This document shows positions 1-30,580 of a DNA stretch of 64,000 nt, in pieces. The number at the start of each line of letters is the position of its first letter. The stretch's first letter is position 1. The position numbers were made by a program, and so were the translations under genes. The stretch is from Bacteroidota bacterium (GTDB lineage: Bacteria; Bacteroidota; Bacteroidia; Bacteroidales; WCHB1-69), in NCBI GenBank assembly GCA_017860455.1, contig JAGDMF010000008.1, forward strand, positions 9,742-73,741, given 5' to 3'. The notes under the pieces are model-generated. The model worked only from the letters and a program-made list of their open reading frames with translations. It was not told where the DNA came from and did not search any database.

Positions 1-1799
1 TTCTAACCAATAATAGTTCATCTATTGGTGTTGGCATTACAGTAGCTGCTGATCTTCAAGTGATTAAAACAGCTTCAAGAAATCCGGTTACTGCTGGTGA
101 TACAATGACTTATTACATTACCGTAATCAATCATGGTGGTTCTAATGCTTCCAATGTAGTTCTTAATGATATTTTGCCTCCTTACTTGACGGTAATAACG
201 GCTACTCCATCCGTTGGAACATGGACAGCTCCATTATGGACTATCGGAACAATGCAAGCGGGTACTTCTCAAGTTCTTACTATTAAAGTAAGAGTGAACG
301 GTACAACACCTCATGGAACTGCAATTGTGAATACTGCAACCGTTTCCAGTACAACTCCGGATCCAAATCCAAATAACAATACAGGTACCAATACCGTATT
401 TGTTGAAACCTGGGCTGATCTTGAAGTGGTGAAAACTGCAAATCATGATACCGTTTCTGCCGGTGAACAGATCACTTATACCATTACAGTTTATAATCAT
501 GGATTTAGTAATGCTTCCAATATCATTGTTAATGATCAAATCCCTGCCGGTTGCACTGTTGTTTCAACTTCGATGACAGCTGGTTCCTGGTTTATTCCTA
601 ACTGGAATATCGGATCTATTGCAGCTGGTGGTCAGGAAACATTAACCTTGGTTGTTTTGGTTCCATCCGGAACAGATAATGGAACAAATATTGTAAACGT
701 GGCAACTGTCGCTTCTACAACTCCTGATCCAAATACAGAAAATAATACTTCATCTGTTACAGTTGAAATTGAAAATGTTGCGGATCTTGTTGTTACAAAA
801 ATTAGTTTGGAAGACATCATCAATCCTGGTGACACCATCACCTATATGATCTCCATCACTAATAACGGACCTGCAGATGCTTATGATATTGTTCTTACAG
901 AATTGATGCCTTCTGAACTCGAATTCGTAAGCGCAATGCCATCAACCGGAACATGGTTGCTCCCAACATGGAGTATTCCTGTAATCCAAAATGGAAATAC
1001 CGCAACGATGATGTTAAAGGCAATTCTTTCACCAACAGTTGATCCAAATACAACAGTTGTGAACAGAGTTACCTTGAATGCGACAACTCCTGACCCTGAT
1101 GAAGATACCAATGAAGATGAAGACGATATTGTTTCCTCTTATGCGGATCTCGCAGTTACGAAAGTGGCTAATATGGACACCGTTATGGCTAACGATCTGG
1201 TAGTTTATACCATCACGGCAACCAATAATGGTGTTACAACTGCAACAAATGCTATAGTCAAAGATTTGTTACCGCCTGATCTGGAATTTGTTTCCGCGAC
1301 AGAATCACCTCAATTCCTCAATGATACCATTGTTTGGGTGATTGGTGAGCTTAATGTGGGTCAAACCGTAACTTTCAATGTTACTGCAAGAGTGAAAAGA
1401 AGTGCTGCTCCTTACTCAACTGTTATCAATACAGTTAATATTTCCAGTGATTTGGATGATTCTGATCTAAGCAACAATACTGCAACTTCCTCCATCTTTG
1501 TGGATGTTTTACTCACTCCATTTATACCGGATGGTATCTCTCCAAATGGTGATGGAATCAATGAAGCATTGGTAATCAGAGGATTGGAAAATTATCCAAA
1601 TAATAAATTGACCATTTTCAACAGATGGGGAGTGATCGTATTTGAAGGTACTCCTTATGCTAATGATTTTGATGGAACTTCTGATAGAGGTATTACTGTG
1701 GGTGGTAATAAATTACCTTCCGGTACCTATTTCTATATTCTCGATTTAGGCGTTAAAGATATGGATCCAATTAGAGGATATTTCTACTTAGCCAGATAG
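1..1799 (+). CDS. T9SS type-B (CHU_C-like) sorting-domain surface protein with DUF11-type repeats; 5' end cut by the window edge
   Basis: The frame is open from base 3 (..VAADLQVIK), so the GTG at 60 is not the real start. There are about five ~115-aa repeats, each opening ADL.V.K and carrying Y.I.V.N.G.S.A.N and TTPDPN..NN motifs. The C-terminal FIPDGISPNGDGINE...FNRWG...GTYFY motif is typical of the gliding-motility/T9SS type-B C-terminal domain. Confidence 0.85.
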   Translation, partial: LTNNSSSIGVGITVAADLQVIKTASRNPVTAGDTMTYYITVINHGGSNASNVVLNDILPPYLTVITATPSVGTWTAPLWTIGTMQAGTSQVLTIKVRVNGTTPHGTAIVNTATVSSTTPDPNPNNNTGTNTVFVETWADLEVVKTANHDTVSAGEQITYTITVYNHGFSNASNIIVNDQIPAGCTVVSTSMTAGSWFIPNWNIGSIAAGGQETLTLVVLVPSGTDNGTNIVNVATVASTTPDPNTENNTSSVTVEIENVADLVVTKISLEDIINPGDTITYMISITNNGPADAYDIVLTELMPSELEFVSAMPSTGTWLLPTWSIPVIQNGNTATMMLKAILSPTVDPNTTVVNRVTLNATTPDPDEDTNEDEDDIVSSYADLAVTKVANMDTVMANDLVVYTITATNNGVTTATNAIVKDLLPPDLEFVSATESPQFLNDTIVWVIGELNVGQTVTFNVTARVKRSAAPYSTVINTVNISSDLDDSDLSNNTATSSIFVDVLLTPFIPDGISPNGDGINEALVIRGLENYPNNKLTIFNRWGVIVFEGTPYANDFDGTSDRGITVGGNKLPSGTYFYILDLGVKDMDPIRGYFYLAR

Positions 1800-2800: not shown

Positions 2801-5326
2801 ATGAAAATACGTAGAATAATTACTGCTTTGATATTAATCCTTGTGACTTGCAATGCAATGTCTCAAGACCATAAAGTGAAAATGGGGAATAAATATTTTG
2901 ATCAATTTGACTATGCCATGTCTGTAAAATATTATGAACCGGTCAAAGATAAATCGATTGAGGTTTTAAGAAATTTAGCTCATTCCTATTACATGATAGG
3001 CGATTGGGAAAATGCCAGAACAACCTACGAACAGATCTATACCCTTCCTCAAAAAACATTTGATGATGTTTGGAACTATTTCCTTGTTCTTCAACAATTA
3101 ACCCAATACGATAAAGCGATCTCCTTACTTCCTGAACTTACCAAATTGAATCCTAATGATATTCGGGTGAATTTGTATTTGAAAGCCGGAGATTACTATA
3201 AAAACCTACTTTCAGCTACCCCTAGGTATGAGTTGAAAAATCTGAAGATGAACTCTACCCATCAGGAGTTTTCTACTGCTATTATGGGAGATAAGGTGGT
3301 GTATGCCACTTCAAAAAATAAGTATCACCTTTTCAAAAGAGTGTGGGTGGGTAACCATAAAGGTTATTTGAATCTTTTTGTATCTAAAATACCTGAAGAT
3401 AAAGAGTTTAAATCCGGAAAACCATTGACTCGTGAAGCAAATAAGAAATATCATGATGGTCCCGTTACGTTCAATGAAGCAGGTAATTTTATGGTTTTGA
3501 CCAGAAACAATTACAAAAGCAAAAGTTCTGACGGTACCAGAAATTTACAACTTTTCTCCAGTGAATTAGTGGATGGTGAGTGGTCAAAACCCATTGCATT
3601 CCCTTACAATAATGCGGAATATTCAATTGGACAAGCTGCATTAACTCCCGATGGAAAATATATGTTCTTTGTTTCTGATATGCCCGGTGGAGTAGGAGGG
3701 ACTGACCTTTATGTTGTGGAAAGAAAATCTGATGGTAACTGGGGTCCGATCGTTAATTTAAAAGAACTCAATACTGAAGGAAATGAGATGTTTCCTGTTT
3801 ATCATGCGGATGGCGTTCTTTACTTCTCTTCTAACGGATATCCCGGATTGGGAGGTTTAGATGTTTTTGTAGTACCTGTTTCCGGTGAACAATACAATAT
3901 TTTTGGAAAACCTGAAAATATGGGAACCCCAATTAACGGCACTTACGATGACTTTGCCCTTACTTTTGATAAAAACCAAAAATTTGGTTACTTAACCTCT
4001 AACAGAGCAGAAGGTCAGGGGGATGATGATATCTATTATGTGAATGTGCTTCAACCTAAAAAGTTCAAAAAAATAATTCGTGGAGTTACTAAAACACCTG
4101 AAAATGTGATTGTTCCTAATGCTGAAGTATCCTTAACCCTTAACGGTAAACCGGTAGCTAAAACAGTAAGTGATGATCAGGGTAAGTTTGAATTTGTAGT
4201 TTCTCAACAAACCACTTTTGATTTGAAAGGGATCAAACCTCAGTATAGTGATGGATTAAATACCGCCAATACCGATGTTCCTGACGAGATTGTGTATTCA
4301 GATTTGGTTTTAGATCAAATAAAACCGTTTGGAGTTAAATTTGTCGTGAAAGACAAAGCAACTGATAAAGAGATTCCAAATGCGATGATTCACCTTAAAG
4401 ACAACATCACTTTTGAAGAAGATCAAAACCCAACCGATAATGCGGGTGCTTATTTAAAAGATTTACCTAAGGCTAAATTAAATGATAATATCAGCTATTA
4501 TCTCACTACTTCTCATCCTGACTATGTAACCAATACCCAAAATTACTATCAAAAATTGCTTAAATCGGGGATTTATGAATATATTATCTATTTGGAACCA
4601 CTTAAACAAACCCTTGTTTTAGGCGAAGATTTAGGAAAAAGATTCAATCTCAATCCAATCTATTTCGATTTGGATAAATCGGATATCAGACCCGATGCAG
4701 CCATTGAGTTGGATAAGATTGTTCAGATCATGAATGCATATCCTGATATTGTGATTGAGTTGGGATCTCACACTGACTGTCGTGCTCCTTATGAATATAA
4801 TATGGCTCTTTCAGAAAGGCGTGCCAAAGCATCAGCTGATTATATCAAACAAAGAATCACCAATCCAAAACGGATTTACGGTAAAGGATACGGCGAAACC
4901 CGTTTAGTAAATTACTGTGAATGTGAAGGCGATTACACCGCGATCTGTACAGAAGAACAACATCAGATGAATCGTAGAACTGAATTCAGAGTCGTAGCCA
5001 TTGGTGACAAAAAAGTGAAAATTACTGCTAATGAAACACCAAAAACAAATGCAGGTTTACCTCTCATCCCTAAAGGAAGATCGTTTGATGAAAAAGGTAC
5101 TTATTACAGGGTACAAATATTGAATTCCCCAAAACTTTTTGAATTAAAACCTGAAAATTTCAATGGATTTGATGGAATAGCCTACTATTTTTACAACAAC
5201 AGATACCAATATACAGTAGGTAAAAGTGCCAACAAAGAGGAGATGATTAAGCTTCAACAGCAATTGTTAAAGTTCTATCCCGAAGCATTTTTAGTCAAAT
5301 TTATCGACGGAATCAAACAAAAATAA
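2801..5326 (+). CDS. OmpA-family outer-membrane/peptidoglycan-binding protein (TPR + TolB-like repeats + OmpA_C + SPOR-like tail)
   Basis: OmpA_C core is present (NPIYFDLDKSDIRPDA ... LGSHTDCRAPYEYNMALSERRA ... NRRTEF). TolB-like propeller repeats occur in the middle. This is the third gene of the cargo/PorP/OmpA operon pattern. Confidence 0.85.
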   Translation: MKIRRIITALILILVTCNAMSQDHKVKMGNKYFDQFDYAMSVKYYEPVKDKSIEVLRNLAHSYYMIGDWENARTTYEQIYTLPQKTFDDVWNYFLVLQQLTQYDKAISLLPELTKLNPNDIRVNLYLKAGDYYKNLLSATPRYELKNLKMNSTHQEFSTAIMGDKVVYATSKNKYHLFKRVWVGNHKGYLNLFVSKIPEDKEFKSGKPLTREANKKYHDGPVTFNEAGNFMVLTRNNYKSKSSDGTRNLQLFSSELVDGEWSKPIAFPYNNAEYSIGQAALTPDGKYMFFVSDMPGGVGGTDLYVVERKSDGNWGPIVNLKELNTEGNEMFPVYHADGVLYFSSNGYPGLGGLDVFVVPVSGEQYNIFGKPENMGTPINGTYDDFALTFDKNQKFGYLTSNRAEGQGDDDIYYVNVLQPKKFKKIIRGVTKTPENVIVPNAEVSLTLNGKPVAKTVSDDQGKFEFVVSQQTTFDLKGIKPQYSDGLNTANTDVPDEIVYSDLVLDQIKPFGVKFVVKDKATDKEIPNAMIHLKDNITFEEDQNPTDNAGAYLKDLPKAKLNDNISYYLTTSHPDYVTNTQNYYQKLLKSGIYEYIIYLEPLKQTLVLGEDLGKRFNLNPIYFDLDKSDIRPDAAIELDKIVQIMNAYPDIVIELGSHTDCRAPYEYNMALSERRAKASADYIKQRITNPKRIYGKGYGETRLVNYCECEGDYTAICTEEQHQMNRRTEFRVVAIGDKKVKITANETPKTNAGLPLIPKGRSFDEKGTYYRVQILNSPKLFELKPENFNGFDGIAYYFYNNRYQYTVGKSANKEEMIKLQQQLLKFYPEAFLVKFIDGIKQK

Positions 5327-5360: not shown

Positions 5361-5885
5361 ATTGCTCGATTAAGAAGGACTGGTGACGGGAGTCAGGTGA
5401 CGGGAGAAGTTCGAAGTTAAACGTTCGAAGTTCGACGAAAATCGCTATATTGTTCGTCTGCTGTCCGCCGACCGCCGTCTGCCGTCTTTTCTTCATTTTT
5501 CATTATTCATTCGTCTGCTGTCCGCCGACCGCCGTCTGCCGTCTTTACTTCATTTTTCATTTTTCATTTATAATTAGCTTATTAACACATTTTCTCATTA
5601 GCTTATTAATCAGGGCGTGCCGGCTTTCCCAGCCCACAATCCTACCCACGCCGTCGGGCTTGTTCCGGGGTCCGCTTCGCTTCCGTGCTTCGCACCGGCT
5701 TCGCCGCCCTCCAAAACCGCTATCGCGGTTTTTTTGGGTTTTGGCACAATATTTAAAAACATTTTTTTTGTTACACAGTGTCCCACAGTGTACTAATGTG
5801 TACCACAGTGTTTTGATTTTAAAAATTCGCACATTTTAACACTGTGATACCCCGTTTAACACCGTGAAACACTGAGAAATAAAAT
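5361..5885. repeat. Mosaic micro-tandem-repeat block A
   Basis: Contents in order: GGTGACGGGAG x2; GTTCGAAGTT x2; a 57-bp tandem duplication at 5452-5565 built from CTGCCGT/CCGCCGA and TTCATTW heptamers; TTAGCTTATTAA x2; GCTTCGC-type words in a GC-rich stretch; and CACAGTG/CACTGTG words. Confidence 0.9.
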
Positions 5886-6880: not shown

Positions 6881-7587
6881 AGCCGACTGCAGTCTGCCGT
6901 CCCTTTTCCCCAGTCTCCAGTCTCCAGTCCCCAGTCCTATAATGGAACGCGGATGCCACGGATTTTCAAACGCGGATTTAAACGGATTATAAAGTCGGCA
7001 GACGGCGGACGGCAGTCTGCTGTCCCTTTTTCCCCTGTCCCCAGTCTCCAGTCTTCTCAACCCGTAGGGTTCCATGTGAATAACCGTATGCAAGCTTGCG
7101 CAGCTTACGGAAGAATGAAGCCTCCAGTCCCCTTGTCCCCTGTCCCTTTCCCCTTGTCCCTTAATTAGAAAACTGATTCTCCCGACGCCCATTACAACTT
7201 TCCCGATTGGTATTACATAATTGCAGGAGGTTATTTTATAATTGCAGGAGGTTATTTTATAATTGCAGGAGGTTATTTTATAATTGCAGGAAGTTATTTC
7301 AAAATTGCAGGAGGCTATTTTATAATTGCAGGAGGTTATTTTAACTTTCCCGGTGGCTATTACAACATTCCCGGTGGCAATTATAAACTTTCGGGAAGCT
7401 ATTCCATAATTGCAGGAGGTTATTTTATAATTGCAGGAAGTTATTTTATAGTTGCAGAAGGTTATTTCAAAATTTACTGCCGTCTGCCGTCTGCCGTCTG
7501 CCGTCCATTCCCCTTTCTCCTTTCCCCTTCCCCCTTTCCCTTTCGCCCTTCGCCTTTCGCCTTTTGAGCACATTCAAAACATTTTGC
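6881..7587. repeat. Mosaic micro-tandem-repeat block B
   Basis: Contains CTGCCGT and its reverse complement GACGGCAG, CCAGTCY heptamers, an ~85-bp module also found at 15031-15112, the 21-bp array, and then CTGCCGT x4 followed by CCCTTTC/CCTTTCG heptamers. Confidence 0.9.
7191..7484 (+). repeat. Tandem array of 14 x 21-bp units
   Basis: Exact 21-nt register. Main unit is ATTTTATAATTGCAGGAGGTT. Variant units are ATTTTAACTTTCCCGGTGGCT, ATTACAACATTCCCGGTGGCA and ATTATAAACTTTCGGGAAGCT. There are no spacers between units. Confidence 0.95.
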
Positions 7588-7595
7588 TATATTTG
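7588..7595 (+). promoter_or_regulatory. Bacteroidota sigma-A -7 box (TAnnTTTG)
   Basis: TATATTTG followed by CAAA. Part of the 133-bp conserved unit upstream of ORF 7745. Confidence 0.6.
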
Positions 7596-7720
7596 CAAAC
7601 GAAATAACTAACACCCTTAAAGTTTTCAAAAGGTGCACAAATCTTCCAGAATAGGATGAATAGATACACTTGTTAAGGTTTTAAGGTGCATATATATAAA
7701 CGAGTTAGGTGCAATTTTAG
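7588..7720 (+). repeat. 133-bp conserved promoter-plus-leader unit, copy 1, ending in attC/attI-type core GTTAGGTGC
   Basis: About 93% identical by eye to 10493-10625. Contains TATATTTGCAAACGAAATAA, three direct AGGTGCA motifs (7631-7637, 7684-7690, 7707-7713) and GTTAAGG at 7672-7678. Confidence 0.85.
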
Positions 7721-7744
7721 GAAAAAACAGACTACACGATTGAC

Positions 7745-8131
7745 ATGAGAGATACAAATGAAAAGATGATAGAATTATTAGAAGTTTCTAAAAACAATGA
7801 GATTTATTCATCTTTGATTAAGCATAGAATAAGTGGAGAAGATTTGAAAATTAGATTTAGTATCGACTACGTTGACTACGGATATTTAAGAAATATTTTA
7901 GATTTCAGACCTTTTGAAAACACTGGATTTGCAAATTATCAGTATTTTTTTGCTTTGAGTTATCGAAAAGATTCAGAGAATACTAATTTGGCACACATGA
8001 AAATAAGAGTCGAACAAGAAGATAAGCATAAACAATATGAATTTAAGATTTCAAAGAAATATGTTTCAAACATACTTTGGTTTAATTCTTTGACTGATAA
8101 AACAGACGTTGAAAAAATGATTGAAAAATAA
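7745..8131 (+). CDS. Hypothetical protein (cassette ORF)
   Basis: A 128-aa ORF starting 33 nt after the GTTAGGTGC core and ending 6 nt before the next attC-like site. No family recognised. Confidence 0.55.
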   Translation: MRDTNEKMIELLEVSKNNEIYSSLIKHRISGEDLKIRFSIDYVDYGYLRNILDFRPFENTGFANYQYFFALSYRKDSENTNLAHMKIRVEQEDKHKQYEFKISKKYVSNILWFNSLTDKTDVEKMIEK

Positions 8132-8137
8132 AAAACA

Positions 8138-8236
8138 GCACCTAACAAGCGGTAAGCAGTAACAGGCAGATAGGTCGGCACAAACAGAAAATGCCTTCAC
8201 GTTAGCCTGCTACTACTACCGCCAGCCGTTAGGTGC
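8138..8236 (+). repeat. attC-like recombination site (99 bp)
   Basis: GCACCTAAC (8138-8146) is the exact reverse complement of GTTAGGTGC (8228-8236). The inner arms GGTAAGCAGTAACAGG and CCTGCTACTACTACC pair imperfectly. The outer boxes fit RYYYAAC / GTTRRRY. Confidence 0.7.
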
Positions 8237-8282
8237 CATTTGAAATCAGAATAAAAAACATATAAAATTAAAAAATAATAAA

Positions 8283-8924
8283 ATGAAAAAAATGATTAAA
8301 AACCTTTTGAGCCCTTTTACACCTCAGTTTATACAGAATATGTTGAAAAAAAGGGTTGACAAAAAACAGTTAAGGAAGTGGAATGAAAATGGTTGTCCTG
8401 TTCCTCCGCCTCACATTATCAAGCAGATGACCATACAAGAGTATCAAAAACAAACTCAATATAAAGTGTTAGTAGAAACGGGTACCTATATGGGGGATAT
8501 GGTTGAAGCGCAAAAGAGAATATTTAGAGCTATTTTTTCCATTGAATTAGGAATCGATTTGTTTAATAAAGCAACAAAAAGATTCAAGAACGATAAAAAT
8601 GTTACTATTGTTCAAGGGGATAGTGGAAAAATACTCCCCAAAATAGTATTAACACTAAACGAACCTGCCATATTCTGGTTAGATGGTCATTATTCAGCCG
8701 GGATCACGGCTAAAGGAGAGAAAGATTGCCCCATATTTGAGGAATTGGATGCCATATTTGACAGCCAGAAAAATAATCACATTTTACTCATTGACGATGC
8801 AAGATGTTTTAACGGTGAAGGAGATTACCCCACCATTAATCAATTGACAGATTATATAAAAAATAAAAATGAAAAATATCATGTTGAAGTTAAACACGAT
8901 ATTATTCGATATGTAATCAAATAG
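8283..8924 (+). CDS. Putative class I SAM-dependent methyltransferase (cassette ORF)
   Basis: [19 protein letters not shown] and FWLDGHYS motifs resemble the TylF/CmcI-like methyltransferase fold. The assignment is by eye only. No own TAnnTTTG box was seen upstream. Confidence 0.5.
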
Positions 8925-8949
8925 TAGTAAAATAAAGCGATGTACAAGT

Positions 8950-9110
8950 CTGCCGACCGCCGTCTGCCGACTGCCGTCTGCCGACCGCCGTCTGCCGACT
9001 GCCGTCTGCCGACTGCCGACCGCCGTCTGCCGACTGCCGTCTGCCGTCTGCCGACTGCCGACCGCCGTCCGCAATCTGCCGTCCTTTCCCCCTTCCCCTT
9101 TCCCCAGTCT
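8950..9110. repeat. Mosaic block C: ~19 heptamers CTGCCGW/CCGCCGT, then C/T-rich heptamers
   Basis: Direct reading: CTGCCGACCGCCGTCTGCCGACTGCCGT... followed by CCTTTCCCCCTTCCCCTTTCCCCAGTCT. Confidence 0.95.
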
Positions 9111-9150
9111 AATTAGCACAATGTTTTTTTGCCCTTTCAAAATATTGTAA

Positions 9151-9158
9151 TATATTTG
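9151..9158 (+). promoter_or_regulatory. Bacteroidota -7 box (TATATTTG) within a conserved promoter module
   Basis: The module TTTTGCCCTTTCAAAATATTGTAATATATTTGCAAA (9125-9163) recurs at 13900-13935. Confidence 0.55.
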
Positions 9159-9259
9159 CAAATCAATACTAATATAAAAAATACCGTTTTTCATCCAAAT
9201 ATTGAGAACTTACCGTAATATAAAGTTAAAATAGTAAGGATTATAAGCAACTTCCGTCA

Positions 9260-9919
9260 ATGCAAAAAATGAAAACAATAATAACAATAATCCTTCTGGC
9301 AATTTTGACAGCATGTTCCTACGAAAAAAAGGATTTGGAACAAACCAACGCTGTTGAAAATGTTGTAATAACTTCTACATCTACTTCGTCAATAAAACCT
9401 GTTTTAACAGGAAATGATTTGGTGGACAAAATGAATGAAATTAAAAATATACCATATAGAACTTTTCCATATAACTTGCAAGAAATTGACTCAATTACAT
9501 GGAACTGTGGTGACTCATTGTATTGGGAAATTGTACAACTTGGACAAGACGCAATTCCATATTTGATAACTAAGGTTCAAGACAGCACTATGACAGACAT
9601 TCAAATCCCATGTAGAGACATTAATCTGACTGTCGGGACAATTGCTTTTATCACTCTTAACGATATTATATCTATACCAAATGCTATTGTTTTTGAATGT
9701 CAATACGATGTTTTAATGTTAAACTGTGATTTTGAATTTCCGGTGGGACTACTTGAATACGTAAATACAAATCCACAAGAAGTACATGAAAAACTATTGA
9801 AGTGGTATGAAAAGTACGGAAAGACAATAAAAAAGAAAAAGCTTAAAAAGTCTGAGCAAAATGATTGTAAAAAAAAATATGGAATTAACTATGAATTTTC
9901 AATAAATTATAAATGGTAA
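9260..9919 (+). CDS. Hypothetical lipoprotein
   Basis: Signal peptide with lipobox (LAILTAC). Overlaps the dgkA start by 7 nt, suggesting an operon. Confidence 0.6.
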   Translation: MQKMKTIITIILLAILTACSYEKKDLEQTNAVENVVITSTSTSSIKPVLTGNDLVDKMNEIKNIPYRTFPYNLQEIDSITWNCGDSLYWEIVQLGQDAIPYLITKVQDSTMTDIQIPCRDINLTVGTIAFITLNDIISIPNAIVFECQYDVLMLNCDFEFPVGLLEYVNTNPQEVHEKLLKWYEKYGKTIKKKKLKKSEQNDCKKKYGINYEFSINYKW

Positions 9920-10293
9920 CAAGACAAAAATTTTCAATATTCAAAAGACTCAAAAGTTTTGAACATGCTTTTAATGGATTGCTAATTTTGATAAAAGAGG
10001 AGCACAATGCTAGAATACATTTATTCGCTACGATTTGTGTTATCTTTGCTGGAGTCTTATTTAAAATATCTTTGAATGAATGGATTGCAATTATTTTTTC
10101 AATTGGACTTGTATTTTGTCTTGAGATCATAAACTCTTCGATTGAAAATATAGCTGACTTTATATATCCGGAAAAGCATGAAAAGATAAAAAAAATTAAG
10201 GATTTATCAGCTTCTGGTGTGTTAATGAGTGCCATAACAGCAATGATAATTGGATTGATCATTTTTATTCCTAAAATAATCAAATTATGCTAA
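9913..10293 (+). CDS. dgkA: Diacylglycerol kinase / undecaprenol kinase family (DgkA)
   Basis: 126 aa with three hydrophobic helices. FEHAFNGL......E.N.RIH and E..NS.IE...D motifs are typical of prokaryotic DAGK. Confidence 0.8.
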   Translation: MVTRQKFSIFKRLKSFEHAFNGLLILIKEEHNARIHLFATICVIFAGVLFKISLNEWIAIIFSIGLVFCLEIINSSIENIADFIYPEKHEKIKKIKDLSASGVLMSAITAMIIGLIIFIPKIIKLC

Positions 10294-10426
10294 AAATAGT
10301 AAAAGATACAAAAAGATTAAACGAAACACATCGCTATTAAAAAATCACCATAAGAGATTAACTTTCACCATGTTTCGATGTATTGCAACCATTGAACGGA
10401 GCTTCCGACTAATAATTGATCATTAA

Positions 10427-10490
10427 CCTTTTGCCTTGTCCTTGGTTCTTTGCCCTTCGCCTTTTGCCTTTCGCCTTTTGCCCTTTTTTT
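10427..10490. repeat. Mosaic block D: CCTTTTG/CCCTTCG/CCTTTCG heptamers
   Basis: Direct reading: CCTTTTGCCTTGTCCTTGGTTCTTTGCCCTTCGCCTTTTGCCTTTCGCCTTTTGCCC. Confidence 0.9.
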
Positions 10491-10492
10491 TA

Positions 10493-10625
10493 TATATTTG
10501 CAAACGAAATAATATACACCCTTAAAGTTTTCTTAAGGTGCACAAATCTTCCAGAATGGGATGATTAGATACACTTGTTAAGGTTTTAAGGTGCATAAAT
10601 ATAAACGAGTTAGGTGCAATTTTAA
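10493..10625 (+). repeat. 133-bp conserved promoter-plus-leader unit, copy 2
   Basis: Same order of motifs as 7588-7720. The -7 box TATATTTG is at 10493-10500 and the GTTAGGTGC core at 10609-10617. The ORF starts 21 nt later. Confidence 0.85.
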
Positions 10626-10637
10626 AAATCGCTTTTT

Positions 10638-11555
10638 ATGAAGAAAATTCTAATTTTCATTTTTGTGATTATTTTTTGTAATATAAATGCTCAAAATGTG
10701 ACTACATCATTAAGAGAAGAAATATTGAATGGGAAAATAAAAATCATCAAACAAAAAATATATATGGAAGATAAAGTAGATACTATGCTTTATATTTTCA
10801 ATGATTTAGGATTATTAATAGAGGAAATTCAATTTAGAGTACACACTTTTTACTTTTATAACTCTAACAATCAAAAAATAAAATCAATTTCTAATTATTT
10901 GGAATATGGAGGTATTGAATCTCATACAAATGAATATTTTTATGAAGATGGAACTTTAATTAAGCATATTCTAAAATATCCTCCCTCTACGGACACAATT
11001 ACCCGATTTTTTGATTACTTTGTCACATATTATAAATATGATTTTAATAATCAATTGATTGAAGTTAGGAAATTTAATAAACACAAAAAAAATAAAACTG
11101 AAACTTTCTCAGAACATTATAAATATCAATATGATTCTTGTGGAAACAAAACAATTGAAGAAAAATTTGATTCAAATGGGAATAAATTAGAGATAATTGA
11201 GAAAAAATACATGAATAACATACTATTGGAAACAAATACATGGATGAAATTTGAAGGAGAAGATTTATATCTTAAAACTATTTATTTATATGATGATAAT
11301 GGAAATCTTGAAAGTCAAATTGAAATTGTTTATATGTATGGTAGTAAAACAGATATTGTTACTCAATCAACTACAAGTTATTTTTATGATGATCAACAAA
11401 GATTGATAAAAGTTATTGAACCTTGGCATCCAAATAATAAAATCACGACTTATAGCGATTTTGACATAAATGACAATTGGTTGCAAAAAATTATTATTGA
11501 CAACAACGGAAAAGTTAAAAAATATACACGTGAAATAGAATACTTCAATGAATAA
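10638..11555 (+). CDS. Secreted repeat protein (YD/RHS-like short repeats), hypothetical
   Basis: Signal peptide present. Recurrent Y.YD..GN... motifs (YQYDSCGNK, YLYDDNGNL, YFYDDQQRL). Shares the IFNDLGL.IEEI motif with ORF 43877-44293. Confidence 0.55.
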   Translation: MKKILIFIFVIIFCNINAQNVTTSLREEILNGKIKIIKQKIYMEDKVDTMLYIFNDLGLLIEEIQFRVHTFYFYNSNNQKIKSISNYLEYGGIESHTNEYFYEDGTLIKHILKYPPSTDTITRFFDYFVTYYKYDFNNQLIEVRKFNKHKKNKTETFSEHYKYQYDSCGNKTIEEKFDSNGNKLEIIEKKYMNNILLETNTWMKFEGEDLYLKTIYLYDDNGNLESQIEIVYMYGSKTDIVTQSTTSYFYDDQQRLIKVIEPWHPNNKITTYSDFDINDNWLQKIIIDNNGKVKKYTREIEYFNE

Positions 11556-11564
11556 AAAAACTGC

Positions 11565-11683
11565 TACTAACCAACGCTAAACCCCTTAAGGCCTTACTCC
11601 ACGTGACAAACATAAAAATAAAAAATAAACTAACACTCGCTGGACAATTGACGTCGATGCCCTCATGGGGCTTAGCGTCGGGC
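11565..11683 (+). repeat. attC-like site with degenerate outer boxes (119 bp)
   Basis: About 85% identical by eye to 12590-12711. The inner boxes ACGCTAAACCCC and GGGGCTTAGCGT pair with one mismatch. The outer boxes TACTAAC and GTCGGGC deviate from consensus. Confidence 0.55.
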
Positions 11684-11745
11684 TTTATGCACCATATAAT
11701 TGAATTACAGTGAACTTAAATCATTCTAATTTCATAAAAATTGTG

Positions 11746-11753
11746 TATTTTTG
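11746..11753 (+). promoter_or_regulatory. -7 box (TATTTTTG) for the VbhA/Fic pair
   Basis: Lies 24 nt upstream of the ATG at 11778. The GTG at 11757 is too close to be a plausible start. Confidence 0.5.
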
Positions 11754-11777
11754 TGAGTGATTTTTAACAATTACATA

Positions 11778-11999
11778 ATGTACAAAACTATAGACATTGA
11801 TCGCAAAAATTTGACCTTAATGGGTGTAAAATTTTCTGACTTAAAAACATTGGAAAATACAGCTAATGCTATTGGGACAAATATGTTTGAAGGTTTTGAA
11901 CCAACAAGAGAATTAATTCAACTTTATGTTGATTGGAAGACCGGAGTCATCACGGAATCTGAATTATTATCAACGTTATATACCATTTATGGAAAATAA
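11778..11999 (+). CDS. VbhA-type antitoxin of a class I Fic toxin
   Basis: Small ORF containing the inhibitory (S/T)xxxE(G/N) motif as TNMFEG. Its stop overlaps the Fic ATG (ATGGAAAATAA). Confidence 0.7.
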   Translation: MYKTIDIDRKNLTLMGVKFSDLKTLENTANAIGTNMFEGFEPTRELIQLYVDWKTGVITESELLSTLYTIYGK

Positions 12000-12585
12000 C
12001 TATCATTATTTAGATACAGAACTAAAATACACAAACAAAAATGGCTTACTTTATAATCTGGCTAACATAGAAGATGAAAAAATTCTATTAGTATTTGAAA
12101 GTTTAAAAGTTTCTAAAAGGATTGAAGAGTTAAATGAAAAACCAATAAAGATAAAGAATTCAGATTCTTTGCCAAAAATTCATTATTATTTATTTCAAGA
12201 TGTTTATGAATGGGCTGGCCAAGTCAGAGTTGTTAACATAAGCAAAAATGGGAAACCATTTTTCAATAAAGAGAGATTTCATATTGCATTTAAATATCTT
12301 GATACATTAATTTTTGAATATCGTAAAATTAGAAAGACAAATAAAGCTGAATTAGCTAAGAAATTAGCTGTAATATTGGAAAACATAAACTATCTTCATC
12401 CGTTTAGAGAAGGAAATGGACGAACTCAAAGAGAATTTTTGAGAATTTTAGCATTAGAAAAAGGATTACATTTAAATTTAAATCCGCCTGATAATAAAAA
12501 TGTTTATGAAAGGTATATGCAAGGTACAATTAAAAGTGATATTGGGATATTATCAGAGTTAATTTTAGAATTAATTGAAAAATAA
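11989..12585 (+). CDS. Fic family protein (AMPylation-type toxin)
   Basis: Fic motif HPFREGNGRTQREF is present. The start was moved to the in-frame ATG at 11989, which overlaps the antitoxin stop. Confidence 0.85.
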   Translation: MENNYHYLDTELKYTNKNGLLYNLANIEDEKILLVFESLKVSKRIEELNEKPIKIKNSDSLPKIHYYLFQDVYEWAGQVRVVNISKNGKPFFNKERFHIAFKYLDTLIFEYRKIRKTNKAELAKKLAVILENINYLHPFREGNGRTQREFLRILALEKGLHLNLNPPDNKNVYERYMQGTIKSDIGILSELILELIEK

Positions 12586-12589
12586 CGGT

Positions 12590-12711
12590 GCCTAACAAAC
12601 GCTAAACCCCTTATGGGCCTACTCCACGTGACAAACGATAAACAAAAATAAATAAACTAACACTCGCTGGCCAATTGACGTCGAATGCCCACACGGGGCT
12701 TAGTGTTAGGC
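12590..12711 (+). repeat. attC-like recombination site (122 bp)
   Basis: GCCTAAC (12590-12596) and GTTAGGC (12705-12711) both match consensus exactly. Inner boxes GCTAAACCCC and GGGGCTTAG pair with one mismatch. The site starts 5 nt after the Fic stop. Confidence 0.7.
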
Positions 12712-12749
12712 CTTAGCGAACATTATAAAACAACAACAATTCACAAGTT

Positions 12750-13817
12750 ATGAAATTAGAAGATCTTGGGTATAACGAGAAATTACAAAAATTAAGAGTC
12801 GAAAATAACCTTTCAGACTTTGAAATTGGAAGAGTGATCGCGGAACATAAGGAAAGATATATTGTAAAAACCGAAAACGGAGAATATGATGCCGAAATAA
12901 CTGGTAATTTGCGATTTTCAGCAAATAGCCGCATAGATTTTCCTGCAGTTGGCGATTGGGTTGCTTTGACAACCTATGATTCAGATTTTGCCGTAATCCA
13001 TAAAATAGTTCCGAGACTATCCTTAATTACAAGACAAGCCGTTGGTCATTATGGAGAGATACAAATAATTGCTGCAAATATTGATTATGCATTTCTAATT
13101 CAAGCCGTTGACCGGGATTTTAATGTCAATAGACTTGAAAGATACCTGACTATATGTTATTCATCTAAAGTAAAACCAATAATTGTATTAACGAAAACTG
13201 ATTTAATTAATGAACAAAAGCGTACTGAAATTATTGACAGTATTAAACAACGGATAAAAGAGATTGAAATTATTTCAATTAGTAACAAAACTCAGGATGG
13301 ATACGAAGCACTGAAAAGGAGTATTGTAAAAGGGAAGACCTATTGTATGCTTGGTTCTTCAGGTGTGGGTAAGTCAACACTATTGAACAATCTCTCCGGG
13401 GAAGCTGTAATGAGAACCGACACAATTAGCCAAAGTACCAATAAAGGAAGACACATAACAAGTCACAGGGAATTAATTGTTCTTGAAAGTGGTGGAATTC
13501 TTATTGACAATCCGGGCATGAGAGAAGTTGGGATTGCGGATACATCAGACGGATTAGAAACAACTTTTGATATCATTATCCGTCTTTCTCTAAATTGTAA
13601 ATTTAAAGATTGTACTCATACGCACGAAATCGGGTGTTCGGTAATTGAAGCAGTTGAAAAAGGGGAAATTGATAAAAAATCCTATGAAAACTATCTGAAA
13701 ATGGAACGGGAAAAAGCCCATTTTGAATCAACCATTGAAGAGAAACGAAAAAAAGATAAAGAGTTTGGGAAATTTATTAAAAACTACAAAAAAGATATCA
13801 AGAAAAATAAATACTGA
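12750..13817 (+). CDS. rsgA: Ribosome small-subunit-dependent GTPase A (circularly permuted GTPase)
   Basis: Motifs in order: LTKTDL (G4), then GSSGVGKSTLLN (G1), then DNPG, with a C-terminal zinc knuckle CKFKDCTHTHEIGC. Confidence 0.85.
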   Translation: MKLEDLGYNEKLQKLRVENNLSDFEIGRVIAEHKERYIVKTENGEYDAEITGNLRFSANSRIDFPAVGDWVALTTYDSDFAVIHKIVPRLSLITRQAVGHYGEIQIIAANIDYAFLIQAVDRDFNVNRLERYLTICYSSKVKPIIVLTKTDLINEQKRTEIIDSIKQRIKEIEIISISNKTQDGYEALKRSIVKGKTYCMLGSSGVGKSTLLNNLSGEAVMRTDTISQSTNKGRHITSHRELIVLESGGILIDNPGMREVGIADTSDGLETTFDIIIRLSLNCKFKDCTHTHEIGCSVIEAVEKGEIDKKSYENYLKMEREKAHFESTIEEKRKKDKEFGKFIKNYKKDIKKNKY

Positions 13818-13825
13818 TTTCTTAT

Positions 13826-13899
13826 GAGTATTCGAGCACATGAGCACATGAGCATTCGAGCATTCGAGTATTCGAGCATTCGAGCACATGAGCACACGA
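13826..13899. repeat. Mosaic block E: octamers GAGCATTC/GAGCACAT/GAGTATTC
   Basis: This is the reverse complement of the GCTCGAAT/GCTCATGT family seen in island 2. It is followed by the promoter-like module at 13900-13935. Confidence 0.9.
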
Positions 13900-14918: not shown

Positions 14919-15166
14919 CACGGATTATAAAGACAGCAGACAGCGGACGGCAGACGGCGGACGGCGGACGGCAGACATGTGAAATGGTTGAATAGTAGCA
15001 AAATACAAAACTGATAGCTCTTCGCCCTTTCTCCAGTCTCCAGTCCCCTGTCCTTTAATGGAACGCGAATGCCACTGATTTTCAAACGCGGATTTAAACG
15101 AATTATAAAGTCTGCAGACTGCAGTCTGCAGACTGCAGTCTGCTGTCTTATGAGCACACGAACACC
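14919..15166. repeat. Mosaic block F
   Basis: Contains GACGGCAG-type heptamers (reverse orientation), CCAGTCY heptamers, the ~85-bp module shared with 6910-6996, CTGCAGA/CTGCAGT words and GAGCACAC. Confidence 0.9.
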
Positions 15167-26388: not shown

Positions 26389-26922
26389 CTATAAAGCGAT
26401 CAGATCTTTATGATCAACTTCAAAAATTATGGAACAAGAAAGTGCTTCAATATACACCTGAATTTTATGGTTATTTTTGGTTTCTAAAACCTCACCGGAA
26501 AATCCTTTCAATGCTCCATTTGCTATTTTGACTTTTTGTCCATGTTGTAATGGATGGCATGAAATATCAAAAAGATATTGTTCCTGAACCAACACTTTAA
26601 TCAGGTCAATCTGTTCCGGTGGAATCACAGCTGCTTTTCCACAAAAACAAATATAGGAGATCACAGAGGGAACATCCAATACTTTTTGGTACTCTTTTGC
26701 ACTTACACAAACGAATAGATATGGCCTAAATAGGGGTTCCTCAATCCATCTTTTACGATCTGACCACTGGTGTAATACCCTTTTCTTGGGTAAGTAAACT
26801 TCGATGTTTTTTTCAAGTAATTCATTTTCTATAGTTTTTTCATGATTCATACGAGTGTAAATGGCATGCCATTGATACTTCATGTTGTTTCCTTCATTAT
26901 AAAGCTTCGCCATATCAGTCAC
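26389..26922 (-). CDS. UpxY-family (NusG-like) transcription antiterminator
   Basis: W.AIYT....EK.....L....IE.YLP NGN-domain pattern with a KOW-like C-terminus (GQKVKI.NGALKG..G.V). The likely true start is the MKYQWH methionine near 26883. Confidence 0.8.
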   Translation of the reverse strand: MTDMAKLYNEGNNMKYQWHAIYTRMNHEKTIENELLEKNIEVYLPKKRVLHQWSDRKRWIEEPLFRPYLFVCVSAKEYQKVLDVPSVISYICFCGKAAVIPPEQIDLIKVLVQEQYLFDISCHPLQHGQKVKIANGALKGFSGEVLETKNNHKIQVYIEALSCSIIFEVDHKDLIAL

Positions 26923-27040: not shown

Positions 27041-27210
27041 ACATTTAACATTTAACATTTAACAAATAACATTTAACATTTAACAAATAACAAATAACAA
27101 TTATTCATTTTTCATTTTTCATTATTCATTTTGCATTTTTCATTTTTCATTATTCATTTTTCATTTTTCATTATTCATTATTCATTTGCTAATTCCCCTT
27201 TCGCCCTTTT
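27041..27210 (+). repeat. Mosaic block G
   Basis: ACATTTA/ACAAATA heptamers (27041-27100), then TTCATTW heptamers (27101-27188), then TGCTAATTCCCCTTTCGCCC. Confidence 0.95.
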
Positions 27211-27276
27211 TATCGAGTATAGAATAAAAAAATACAAAAAAAGTTAAAAAATACGAGTGAGGAAGAATAATTGTTG

Positions 27277-27284
27277 TATATTTG
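27277..27284 (+). promoter_or_regulatory. -7 box TATATTTG inside a conserved ~40-nt promoter module
   Basis: GAGTGAGGAAGAATAATTGTTGTATATTTGCAAAAAATT (27255-27293) is nearly repeated at 29083-29121. The box lies inside the track ORF, 14 nt upstream of the ATG at 27299. Confidence 0.6.
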
Positions 27285-27298
27285 CAAAAAATTCATCT

Positions 27299-28561: not shown

Positions 28562-29070
28562 GATTCCTTTCGCCTTATAGAACCCTGATGAAACAGATGG
28601 AACAGATGAAAACAGATTTTTTCTGTATCACTAAGTCTCTCAATGTTTTCAAAAATGCTCGAATGCTCGAATGCTCGTGTACTCGTGTGCTCGATTGTTA
28701 AGCTTTTTAAAAGTTGAAAGGTTGAACGCTTCGCTGTTTAAAGGTTGTAAGGTTGAAATATAATTAAAACTTAAAGTTCAAAAAACACTGTGATACACCT
28801 TCTAACCCAGTGAAACACTGTGTAACTAATTTTTATTTATTTCATGGAATGCAAAAAAGCGAAAGGCAAAGGGCAAAGGTCTTAATTCGTTTATAATTCG
28901 TGAATTCGTGGCATTCTTATTAAAGTTGAAAGGTTGAACGATTGCTCGTGTGCTCGAATGCTCATGTGCTCAATGTGCTCAATTTTTCATTTTTCATTTT
29001 TCATTTTTCATTTTTCATTTTTCATTATTCATTTGCTAATTCACTAATTTGCTCATTTGCTAATTTTTTT
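28562..29070 (+). repeat. Mosaic block H
   Basis: Words in order: AACAGATG; GCTCGAAT/GCTCGTGT octamers; AAGGTTG; a CACTGTG module shared with 5838-5876; GCGAAAGGCAAAGG (reverse of CCTTTCG); AATTCGTG; a second octamer run; TTCATTT x6; TGCTAATTCACTAATTTGCTCATTTGCTAATT. Confidence 0.95.
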
Positions 29071-30448: not shown

Positions 30449-30580
30449 ATGTGCTCGAATGCTCGAATGCTCGAATGTTCGATTGCTCAATTTTTCATTA
30501 TTCATTATTCATTATTCATTATTCATTTTTCATTTTTCATTATTCATTTGCTAATTCACTAATTTGCTCATTTGCTAATT
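30449..30580 (+). repeat. Composite module I (octamers -> heptamers -> TGCTAATT tail)
   Basis: GCTCGAAT x3, then TTCATTW x9, then TGCTAATTCACTAATTTGCTCATTTGCTAATT. Same word order as 28943-29065 and 32075-32218. Confidence 0.95.

Follow-up and report, generated by a model that had tools for sequence, protein, structure and literature searches.

The 64-kb window, the whole stretch of DNA analysed here, most probably carries at 7582-12720 two short, partly decayed arrays that belong to an integron-like system widespread among the Bacteroidales, with a recombinase that acts in trans or has been lost. The cassette-array reading is supported, and the array is operationally a CALIN, located beside a housekeeping gene of a Bacteroidota chromosome; membership in the canonical integrons is not supported. 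An earlier note on this DNA had proposed a CALIN-type array or the distal part of a chromosomal integron. The first part of that proposal stands, but the second does not, because attI-like units head the cassettes and the locus would therefore be two short headed arrays. The reading follows from a composite R-box signature, a shared cassette behind different partners, and an rsgA junction that carries a completely different array in a relative, homologue-based evidence that is stronger than a match to an attC model would be.

Three attC-type hairpin sites lie on the + strand at 8138-8236, 11563-11692 and 12588-12720, all within 7.7-12.7 kb and none dispersed elsewhere in the window. They are intergenic, 3' of ORFs, and richer in G+C than their surroundings. 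All three palindromes described earlier are present, at the distances claimed from the flanking ORFs, but at sites 2 and 3 the 3' box had been misplaced. Site 1, with R'' GCACCTAAC (8138-8146) and R' GTTAGGTGC (8228-8236), belongs to the sequence family AAGCGGTA...TACCGCCAGCC; in array L005, a cassette is closed by an attC that shares its R'' and the start of its L'', and the upstream G|TTAGGTGC there complements this R''. Family 1 includes sites 2 and 3 (nhmmer E = 2.9e-33 and 2.3e-35 against the family profile). Site 2 has R'' GCTACTAAC at 11563-11571 and L boxes CGCTAAACCCC / GGGGCTTAGCG; alignment with 66 homologous sites places its R' not at the proposed GTCGGGC ending at 11683 but at TTTATGCAC (11684-11692), a degenerate box in which GTT has become TTT. 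In site 3, the last of the array (R'' GTGCCTAAC, 12588-12596), the supposed terminal GTTAGGC at 12705-12711 occupies a spacer position, and the homologous R' is CTTAGCGAA at 12712-12720, where the G of GTT has changed to C. The G is mutated in these two of the three window sites.

Folding of both strands, which had been suggested as a check, favoured the bottom strand and recovered the R and L boxes and a bulge, but no conserved extrahelical bases were present in the folded reconstituted sites. Relative to shuffled sequence, z was -5.6, -2.9 and -4.0 for the - strand of sites 1, 2 and 3, vs -3.6, -0.2 and -1.2 for the + strand. The bottom strand of site 1 with flanks reached -26.6 kcal/mol (z -5.6) and that of site 3 -21.8 kcal/mol (z -4.0), and the reconstituted sites gave -24.6 (bottom) vs -19.5 (top) kcal/mol for site 1 and -21.2 vs -14.1 kcal/mol for site 2. 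Across the reconstituted sites, the bottom strand was the more stable in 64 of 67 (mean -3.2 kcal/mol), an asymmetry that arises from G-T wobble pairs and recurs in nine sites from other sequence families. The hairpins combine an R stem of 9-11 bp with a one-sided bulge of 3-5 nt and a long L stem; the L helix returned by RNAalifold is 12+6 bp long, and 11 sequences show AU-to-CG compensatory changes.

Family 1 has 113 copies in 60 public contigs (nhmmer). A pattern built from sites 2 and 3 detected homologous sites in 58 metagenome contigs and two genomes, commonly two to three per contig and on one strand; nearly all of the comparison data are metagenome assemblies. At L003, nine co-oriented ORFs are each followed by a family site, and one cassette is duplicated. 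When the six variable bases after the GTT of one site were compared with the R'' of the next, all six were complementary in 32 of 44 adjacent pairs (mean 5.0 matches), against a random expectation of 1.7% (binomial P 3e-47), whereas the same bases matched the R'' of their own site no better (mean 2.24) than random pairs (2.26). Complementarity to the next R'' rather than to the site's own is the signature of integron cassettes, and the composite R boxes are that of recombination at G|TT. At the junctions, only GTT(A) is conserved. Cassette-level differences with G|TT junctions, which the earlier note had suggested looking for among relatives, were found both in the different array of MAG L004 and in the varied partners of the Fic cassette, an identical copy of which stands behind two different cassettes (L014, L016) and behind a unit (L021).

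Two units on the + strand head the window arrays: unit 1 at 7582-7704 (TAnnTTTG promoter box 7588-7595, crossover after G7704) and unit 2 at 10487-10609 (promoter box 10493-10500, crossover after G10609). They share 93% identity and each ends precisely at G|TT; the repeats extend over 138 nt (7582-7719 and 10487-10624, 93% identical). These had been described as two 133-bp units closed by the core GTTAGGTGC, which does terminate both, but they are more than core carriers: they behave as attI sites and form attI-like array heads bearing a promoter. Unit 1 contains AGGTGCA repeats at 7631, 7684 and 7707 and ends in ...ATATAAACGAG, and the TTAGGTGC that follows its crossover is complementary to the R'' of site 1. 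Homologues at seven loci (L021, L060, L049, L008, L052, L063, L064) always have co-oriented cassettes downstream and all end in AAACGAG|TT followed by variable bases; the cassette behind the unit varies among loci, and the junction is invariably G|TT. At window unit 1, L021, L060 and L052, these variable bases complement the R'' of the first site downstream. Four of the units outside the window (L049, L008, L052, L060) have no adjoining recombinase.

Cassette 1 (7705-8228, +) comprises ORF 7745-8131 (128 aa, no Pfam family match) and its own attC, and the TTAGGTGC at its 5' end (7705-7712) complements R'' GCACCTAA (8138-8145) exactly. Behind it, a cassette remnant (8229-8930, +; ORF 8283-8924, 213 aa) has neither promoter box nor 3' attC; its expected R'' (GGCACCTAAC) was not found anywhere in the window, and GTCTGCC heptamer repeats follow the ORF at 8948-9083. 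A fossil cassette (9258-9925, +) with the lipoprotein ORF 9260-9919 has lost its attC on both sides, only TGGTAACAA (9914-9922) being left of the R'' box, where it overlaps the start of a diacylglycerol kinase gene (9913-10293). The lipoprotein is 87% identical to an L037 ORF with a family-1 attC on either side, and homology to that locus runs from about 7 nt inside the cassette 5' end to the R'' box. After unit 2, cassette 2 (10610-11684, +) joins ORF 10638-11555 (305 aa, signal peptide, weak RHS-repeat match in Pfam) to site 2; of the 6 variable positions in its 5' end TTAGGTGCA, 4 agree with the complement of R'' (GTTAGTAGC), a fit between unit 2 and its own first cassette that lies within chance. 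Cassette 3 (11685-12712, +) encodes a VbhA antitoxin (11778-11999, PF18495) and a Fic toxin (11989-12585, PF02661), and its 5' end TTATGCAC agrees with the complement of the site 3 R'' (TTAGGCAC) in 5 of the 6 variable positions. The pair is a self-promoted toxin-antitoxin cassette, as had been proposed, with a TAnnTTTG box at 11746; Fic or VbhA cassettes also occur in arrays L004, L021, L071 and L076. The other + strand boxes are at 7588, 9151 and 10493, and the claim that none precedes ORF 8283 or rsgA (12750) was confirmed.

The rsgA gene (12750-13817, +; Pfam PF03193) encodes a housekeeping GTPase and is not a cassette. With 85% identity to the rsgA of L004 and 87% to Fermentimonas RsgA, it is, on sequence grounds, the conserved chromosomal flank where the array ends. 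Array and flank meet precisely at the crossover point: the window and the related MAG L004 are homologous from the R' of site 3, right after its first base (12712), into the rsgA leader, and the cassettes upstream of this junction are entirely different in the two.

As reported earlier, the window has no tyrosine recombinase: Pfam gave no PF00589 match in 49 ORFs, phmmer with IntI1 found no recombinase, and tblastn with two cognate recombinases found no gene or remnant within the 64 kb. Among relatives, a co-oriented tyrosine recombinase ends directly before a unit in five independent locus groups (L021, L063, L064, L076-78, L091), which occupy varied places in the chromosome, and at L064 and L076 every downstream junction follows the G|TT rule. 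In a sixth group (L071-73), no unit homologue was detected; the recombinase is followed by a non-homologous stretch that also ends at G|TT, and the cassette junctions lie at G|TT. The unit-adjacent enzyme is alignable with IntI and XerA, its core is equally near XerA and IntI (NCBIfam 209 vs 207 bits; PDB and Foldseek comparisons), and its N-terminal extension forms one or two beta-beta-alpha-beta-beta-alpha domains. It lacks the IntI-specific (I2) insertion of about 42 residues, which is thought to define integron integrases; the system therefore falls outside the integrons in the strict sense. The earlier attribution to integrons thus holds for the attC-type sites and G|TT junctions but not for the recombinase, and the IntI-type enzyme for which a search had been suggested did not emerge from an IntI1 search of all reading frames of at least 80 aa at 62 loci, which found only I2-less recombinases. 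Conserved adjacency suggests that the neighbouring recombinase would be the catalyst. A second, divergently oriented type, also I2-less, abuts the same site family at L018 and L043/L026, so the enzyme assignment is not unique.

A canonical integron remnant, with ordinary attC sites, a true I2-bearing IntI elsewhere in the genome and the adjacent I2-less recombinases as bystanders, is an unlikely alternative. The window boxes fit or nearly fit RYYYAAC/GTTRRRY (ACCTAAC/GTTAGGT, GCCTAAC), the size, post-ORF position, bottom-strand bias and G|TT junctions are integron-like, and integrons have been reported for Bacteroidota at the phylum level (PMC8618304). However, IntegronFinder 2.0 detected hardly any complete integrons in Bacteroidetes (PMC9024848), the 62 loci yielded I2-less recombinases only, recombinases directly before an attI-like unit in five independent groups are not expected of a bystander, and the hairpins lack the conserved extrahelical bases docked by I2.

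Less probable still is double-stranded Xer-type exchange at duplex GTT cores, comparable to pdif modules, with the palindromes incidental or serving as terminators. Although the missing I2 helix and a core as near XerA as IntI agree with it, conservation of GTT(A) alone leaves no identical 6-8 bp overlap of the kind needed for duplex exchange. Strand asymmetry arising from wobble pairs also speaks against it, as does the perfect complementarity of R'' to its own cassette 5' end, at least about 110 nt off in the circle, which matters only if the strand folds. Repeats of the REP/BIME type, MITEs or long intrinsic terminators, none of them involved in gene mobility, are very improbable: the intergenic, G+C-richer palindromes 3' of ORFs would suit them, but there are just three in the window, all in one 5-kb stretch, without a T tract or an Rfam match, and neither the composite R-box statistic nor identical cassettes in changed contexts could be accounted for. 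The ordinary terminators or REP-like elements that the earlier note named as its refuting alternative are effectively refuted by the R'' complementarity of adjacent pairs.

The favoured integron-like system resembles sedentary chromosomal integrons, such as the Vibrio cholerae superintegron, and CALINs in its co-oriented, mostly promoterless ORFs with an imperfect palindrome behind each, bounded by AAC/GTT outer boxes, its G|TT crossover and chimeric sites, lineage-similar site sequences, better-folding bottom strand, duplicated cassettes, self-promoted toxin-antitoxin cassettes and promoter in the array head. It differs in that the neighbouring recombinase lacks the I2 / beta-4,5 insertion, has extra N-terminal domains and reads in the cassette direction, its stop codon being followed at once by the attI-like unit; in hairpins with a 9-11 bp R stem and one-sided bulge but no conserved extrahelical bases; and in several recombinase-free attI-like heads, of which the window has two within 3 kb. 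Reverse-orientation integrons of the Spirochaetota / Treponema type likewise have an integrase read in the cassette direction, and archaeal integrons are reported to have a putative attI directly downstream of intI (PMC9668308), but the integrases of both reportedly retain the IntI-specific additional domain. The Xer-like, I2-less core recalls XerA/XerC/XerD, and CTX phage integration through a hairpin mimic (IMEX) shows that a folded single strand can be the substrate of an I2-less recombinase (PMC7790495). Unlike Xer, the genes here are non-syntenic, adjoin arrays and encode one or two additional N-terminal domains, and the sites, arranged in direct arrays, are hairpins of 100-130 nt rather than 28-bp dif-like cores. 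The recombinases probably fall in or near the "integron-like" subgroup of simple tyrosine recombinases (Smyshlyaev et al. 2021), for whose insertion-less members the part of that study considered here gives no cassette arrays, attI or attC partners.

In the proposed mechanism, each cassette consists of an ORF and its hairpin site, about 100-130 nt long. We infer a single-stranded substrate and roles for the bulge and the N-terminal domains: the bottom (-) strand would fold into the R stem, bulge and L stem, and a tyrosine recombinase would cut it at AAC| (top strand G|TT). The cut single strand would be exchanged with another hairpin site or an attI-like unit, and replication would resolve the junction. 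The unit would supply the promoter for the first cassettes, and the VbhA/Fic pair, with its own, probably stabilises the array. The cognate enzyme would be the IntI/XerA-like, I2-less recombinase with one or two extra N-terminal domains known beside units in relatives; in this MAG, it must either be encoded elsewhere in the genome and act in trans, or have been lost. The mutated GTT cores, together with a cassette stripped of its sites, suggest that the locus is going inactive.

Every sequence quoted in the earlier note was found in the window, where the site motifs occupy a single stretch of about 5 kb, with no further copies in the 64 kb. Site 1 runs on the + strand from its R'' box (GCACCTAAC, 8138-8146) to its R' box (GTTAGGTGC, 8228-8236), and sites 2 (11563-11692) and 3 (12588-12720) are approximately 80-90% identical over their entire length. 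At 99, 130, and 133 nt, respectively, sites 1, 2, and 3 fall inside the attC range of about 57-141 bp. The expected outer boxes, RYYYAAC (R'') and GTTRRRY (R'), are present in site 1 (ACCTAAC/GTTAGGT) and in the R'' of site 3 (GCCTAAC), but the G of GTT is mutated at sites 2 (TTT) and 3 (CTT). Such boxes thus occur together with the G|TT crossover, as in attC sites, and strong conservation across the 67 aligned members of family 1, the sequence family of sites 2 and 3, is confined to GTTA. Site 1 represents a separate sequence family (AAGCGGTA...TACCGCCARCC), which closes cassettes at other loci too, such as a mercury-transport-like one in comparison locus L005. A CALIN is defined as two or more attC sites that share a strand and are spaced by less than 4 kb, with no intI nearby (PMC4889954); the classification of the locus as such an array stands for the three + strand sites, which lie 3.3 kb and 0.9 kb apart, and presupposes that they are attC sites. 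An Rfam scan of the window from 5 to 16 kb returned nothing relevant and one sub-threshold microRNA match, and a generic attC scan (regular expression plus stem) gave, at the score used, 3 + 6 matches against 7.5 expected from shuffled sequence, missing sites 1 and 2.

The inner-box pattern derived from sites 2 and 3 matched two genomes, the 3.47-Mb chromosome OW818690.1 (L003) and a Bacteroidales MAG (L004), and a looser version matched 58 metagenome contigs, in many of which two or three copies shared a strand at spacings of 0.7-2.4 kb. A profile built from 73 distinct sites recovered, with nhmmer, 113 copies across the comparison loci and, in the window, only sites 2 and 3. The L003 array comprises nine co-oriented ORFs, each followed by a homologous site of about 130 nt, and contains one cassette twice (a 283-aa ORF at 1080-1931 and 3628-4479). 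Exact or near-exact cassette duplicates within single arrays were observed in L003 and, in tandem, in L071. A single crossover at G|TT predicts that the bases after GTT pair with the R'' of the next site and not with that of their own site. All six variable positions matched the next R'' in 32 of 44 adjacent site pairs (mean 5.0; binomial P = 3e-47, given a random rate of perfect match of 1.7%), whereas own-site comparisons averaged 2.24, against 2.26 for random pairs. The pairs that failed were mostly more than 1.4 kb apart, and a site of another family probably lies between them. One Fic cassette (G|TTGTGCTTCATGCTTTAAAAATCGCAG...) was found behind two different cassettes (contigs L014 and L016) and, in locus L021, behind an attI-like unit. 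Within the window, complementarity is perfect from unit 1 to site 1 and extends to 5 of 6 positions from site 2 to site 3; the 4 of 6 positions from unit 2 to site 2 are not significant alone.

These units are contained in two 138-nt direct repeats that end in GTTAGGTGC (7582-7719 and 10487-10624; 93% identical), a motif confined to the array. A strict unit pattern (AAGGTGCA..TAAGGTGCA..GTTAGGTGC) found no match in the metagenome scan because the unit repeats are too variable, and nhmmer on the loci recovered homologs in L021, L060, L049, L008, and L052, then in L063 and L064. The unit consistently precedes the cassettes, upstream and in the same orientation, and in all homologs it ends in ...ATAAACGAG|TT followed by variable bases. 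These post-crossover bases are complementary to the first downstream R'' for window unit 1 and for the units of L021, L060, and L052. A TAnnTTTG box is located close to the 5' end of each unit, which also carries AGGTGCA-like direct repeats, two or three in number; the unit thus serves as a promoter-bearing point of cassette insertion. An attI with a cassette promoter is accordingly in place: in relatives the unit stands behind the recombinase stop codon, and the window has both units without the gene. At about 930-990 (- strand) of L021, the 3' third of the unit is swapped for the L'-R' half of a site-1-family attC (GCGGCAACTAACCATACCGCCAACCGTT), the same half that occurs at 2700-2760 of L005; simple insertion at G|TT is insufficient to explain this hybrid junction.

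The earlier note had reported no tyrosine recombinase in the 64-kb window, and this held: Pfam on 49 ORFs gave zero PF00589 matches, and an IntI1 phmmer search found nothing there. The IntI1 sequence served as a probe only, with its matches confirmed independently using NCBIfam, Pfam, and PDB. Applied to all reading frames of 62 loci, it matched four frames, none in the window. The L021 recombinase lies on the same strand as the cassettes, and its stop codon precedes the unit by 27 nt. Another recombinase type, which is about 300 aa long and lacks both an N-terminal extension and the IntI insertion, was found in contigs L018 (866-1780), L043 (3147-4152), and L026 (2-538), divergent and about 100 nt from a family-1 site; divergent orientation is the classical intI arrangement. 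The L043 gene appears frameshifted, and L018 also contains an ORF-less 190-nt cassette behind GCACG|TTGAACTA.

By NCBIfam, both recombinase types fall between archaeal XerA and the integron integrase TIGR02249 and score below either cutoff, with 209 bits for XerA (cutoff 220) and 207 bits for TIGR02249 (cutoff 265). The TIGR02249 match is split in two stretches and falls short because the region corresponding to residues ~185-240 of VchIntIA is nearly missing: in PDB alignments of both types, the flanks of this region align and only 9-18 residues lie in between. Multiple alignment with IntI1 showed the block of about 42 residues containing the I2 helix to be absent in 6 of 6 members examined, while the C-terminal SPFDDL resembles that of IntI. 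An AlphaFold model (pLDDT 72) has no helix at the I2 position and contains two confident N-terminal beta-beta-alpha-beta-beta-alpha domains. Foldseek ranked XerA and VchIntIA equally; searched with the whole model, it returned recombinase cores alone and offered no lead on the N-terminal domains. The IntI-specific additional domain that marks a strict integron (I2 helix, patch III region) is therefore lacking, as the window has no recombinase and the enzymes of relatives have no insertion. The L021-type family includes at least about 8000 database proteins at E<1e-30. The best 120 of these matches are at least 63% identical, are annotated to Bacteroidales, Paludibacter, Prolixibacteraceae, and Chlorobiales, and are named only 'site-specific integrase' or 'XerD'.

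Genomic context was examined for eight members of this family. In Paludibacter sp. (L064), the recombinase is directly followed by a diverged unit ending in AAACGAG|TTGGGTGC and by cassettes for GmrSD, an outer-membrane protein, and a restriction-type nuclease plus one further cassette; a different hairpin closes each of them, and all junctions follow the G|TT/next-R'' rule. Locus L063 carries a unit almost identical to that of the window 66 nt past the recombinase stop codon. Unit-like sequences ending in AAAGGAG|TT stand behind the recombinase in L076-78 and L091, and the L076 cassettes include a DNA methylase and VbhA/Fic. In L071-73, a different head of about 100 nt ending in TATTAG|TTATGGTTC precedes a tandemly duplicated ORF-less cassette (L071 7470-8400, about 470 nt per copy). 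In L079, L093, and others, the contig ends within about 1 kb past the recombinase gene, a pattern that fits breakage of assemblies within arrays that are repetitive or polymorphic. Downstream of the recombinase there are always cassettes or a contig end, and its other neighbors vary by lineage (NusG, PEPCK, PAS kinase, FGE-sulfatase, AlaRS, and CxxCxxCC). Immediately upstream of the recombinase, L063 and the P0007 contig both carry NusG-like genes.

Two other explanations were weighed against a cassette system. Resolution of chromosome dimers by a housekeeping Xer/dif pair depends on one conserved syntenic gene and a 28-bp dif site; the recombinase has no syntenic position, its upstream neighbors differ each time, and it is therefore not a housekeeping Xer. 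From its adjacency to the arrays, we infer that it would be the array enzyme. The sites themselves could be read as REP/BIME or MITE repeats, which are scattered through a genome in many copies irrespective of gene arrays. The window copies are confined to about 5 kb, and on other contigs the copies form co-oriented arrays with one per cassette, which argues against such repeats. An AAC/GTT palindromic pair inside kdpA (53190-53279) was dismissed as chance. The cassette-array reading of the earlier note proved right, with the crossover signature, cassette mobility, and the variation in L004 as strong comparative evidence.

Folding further characterizes the sites. Under DNA parameters, the - strand of window sites 1-3 folds with z = -5.6, -2.9, and -4.0 relative to shuffles, always better than the + strand. 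In the alignment of 67 family-1 members (bottom strand), the consensus L helix spans 12+6 bp, with compensatory changes at two pairs (AU to CG) in 11 sequences. When sites were reconstituted as in the excised circle, each with its own R' restored, a common fold was predicted for family 1, for site 1, and for seven sites drawn from Paludibacter and other contigs. Its R stem measures 9-11 bp and its L stem at least 18 bp, with a bulge of 3-5 nt between them. The bulge lies on the 5' arm just past AACG, and the opposite arm has little or nothing unpaired, making the spacer one-sided and not two-sided. The predicted bottom-strand fold was the more stable in 64 of 67 family-1 members, by a mean of 3.2 kcal/mol, and in all 9 sites that belong to other families. 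The earlier expectation of pairing R/L boxes, an unpaired central spacer, and extrahelical bases was thus borne out for L pairing and, in one-sided form, for the spacer, but not for conserved extrahelical bases. For the 67 family-1 sites as reconstituted, none of the six most frequent fold patterns has a single-base bulge at a fixed position, and among the nine other-family sites one bulged base was predicted in site 1 only. Judging from these models, the conserved extrahelical bases that mark the recombinogenic strand of attC appear to be missing. The loop of family-1 sites contains a 14-nt block invariant in 67 of 67 aligned members, which come from many contigs (bottom CCAGCGAGTGTTAG, top CTAACACTCGCTGG; window copies at 11630-11643 and 12657-12670). 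The center is the variable part of canonical attC sites. The block could be a binding site for a host factor or the recombinase, or could reflect mere recent common descent.

In the window, whose PorP/SprF and T9SS sorting domains, found by Pfam, show a Bacteroidota chromosome, the locus is two short headed arrays in decay. The first contains unit 1, cassette 1, a truncated cassette, a fossil cassette, and a diacylglycerol kinase gene (dgk); the second contains unit 2, cassette 2, and a VbhA/Fic cassette, followed by rsgA. Lost sites, a missing 3' site, and mutated GTT (TTT, CTT) all point to decay. ORF 8283-8924 has a proper junction at its start and no 3' site. ORF 9260-9919 is 87% identical to a cassette of locus L037 that has a site on either side; the window copy has lost both, and only an R'' remnant (TGGTAACAA) persists. 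The dgk gene (9913-10293) starts in that fossil R'' remnant (9914-9922, ATGGTAACAAGAC) and overlaps the end of ORF 9260, and is either a captured gene or a chromosomal gene fused to a cassette. TAnnTTTG boxes occur on the + strand at 7588, 9151, 10493, and 11746, and, as had been noted, ORF 8283 and rsgA (12750) have none upstream.

The nearest named relatives of RsgA are from Fermentimonas and Porphyromonadaceae (87%), and DNA across rsgA is 85% identical between the window and the MAG L004. This homology begins exactly past the first base of the last R' (window ...AGGCC|TTAGCGAACATT; L004 ...AAACTG|TTATCGGTCATT). Upstream of rsgA, L004 has nine unrelated cassette-like ORFs. Fermentimonas rsgA loci, checked for cassette-level indels, have no array upstream and only a similar GTTA... 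leader. The leader starts GTTA...CAYTGTAAAAAA in three lineages (L081 8960-9000, window 12712-12749, and L004 ~210-260 on the - strand). As the motif also occurs in array-less Fermentimonas, a GTT already present in the rsgA leader may have been the point where the array was seeded. Taken by itself, the window is of modest practical import: this is an orphan, decaying array beside rsgA, and it is probably inactive.

Intergenic tandem repeats with a period of 7-8 (also 14/21/28) surround accessory genes in the window, at 5453-5568, 7130-7162, 7477-7564, 8948-9083, 10449-10485, 13824-13896, 14931-15148, 27041-27187, 28939-29066, 30452-30548, and 32076-32187. Many of the period 7-8 repeats are G+C-rich in an A+T-rich genome (CTGCCGT, TTCCCCT, GTCTGCC x19, and GAGCATTC). 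Both attI-like units have tandem repeats directly upstream, and the L060 unit is likewise preceded by similar repeats (CCCCTT/GTCCCTT). Between G+C-rich heptamer blocks just upstream of unit 1, a 21-nt element (ATAATTGCAGGAGGTTATTTT) is repeated about 12 times at 7217-7474 and yields a spurious 240-aa ORF on the - strand. A second heptamer-repeat-rich stretch contains a NusG/UpxY-like gene, an AAA_14/DUF4143 ATPase, and an AbiEii toxin pair (26389-26922 on the - strand; 27257-28561 and 29174-30437 on the + strand). An AAA_14/DUF4143 gene also lies upstream of rsgA in Fermentimonas.

The system resembles an integron in its attI with promoter, attC hairpins, single G|TT crossover, bottom-strand bias, and toxin-antitoxin cassettes. 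It differs in its recombinase, which lacks the IntI-specific domain; the system is thus an integron by function but not by definition. This domain is described as a requirement for capturing cassettes and for single-strand recombination, and no intermediates are known (PMC7790495). IntegronFinder uses it as a criterion, and surveys discard recombinases without it (PMC4889954). IntegronFinder 2.0 found almost no complete integrons in Bacteroidetes (PMC9024848), and reviews list Bacteroidota at the phylum level only (PMC9668308, PMC8618304). The accessible text of Smyshlyaev et al. calls the insertion 'not fully conserved' in an integron-like subgroup and describes no arrays for its insertion-less members. 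Our literature search, incomplete in coverage, returned no description of these arrays or of the recombinase-array link, and a prior description is possible.

A large, conserved, I2-less recombinase family thus heads cassette arrays bearing the G|TT signature. We tentatively propose, as a reading that is quite possible and somewhat short of probable, a distinct and widespread class of integron-like platforms in Bacteroidales and probably Chlorobiota. Their recombinase would have lost or never gained I2, regarded as the central innovation behind recombination at folded single-stranded attC sites. The platforms would rely on additional N-terminal domains, on an attI that is co-oriented and bears AGGTGCA repeats, and on hairpins with one-sided bulges instead of extrahelical bases. 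If true, these platforms would be either the pre-I2 stage that is missing from integron evolution or a separate answer to the same problem, and would explain the scarcity of integrons in this phylum in IntegronFinder-type surveys. The wider finding is a variation on the integron principle in which the recombinase is built, and the hairpins are marked, in a different way, the catalytic link being suggested by gene adjacency. Should this link hold, a clear experiment on strand and site selection without I2 would become possible, and integron-finding tools would be under-counting this phylum. The cassettes seen here, which encode Fic/VbhA, GmrSD, restriction-type nucleases, a DNA methylase, and mercury-transport-like genes, would then belong to an overlooked pool of mobile cassettes in a phylum that is dominant in gut and digester.
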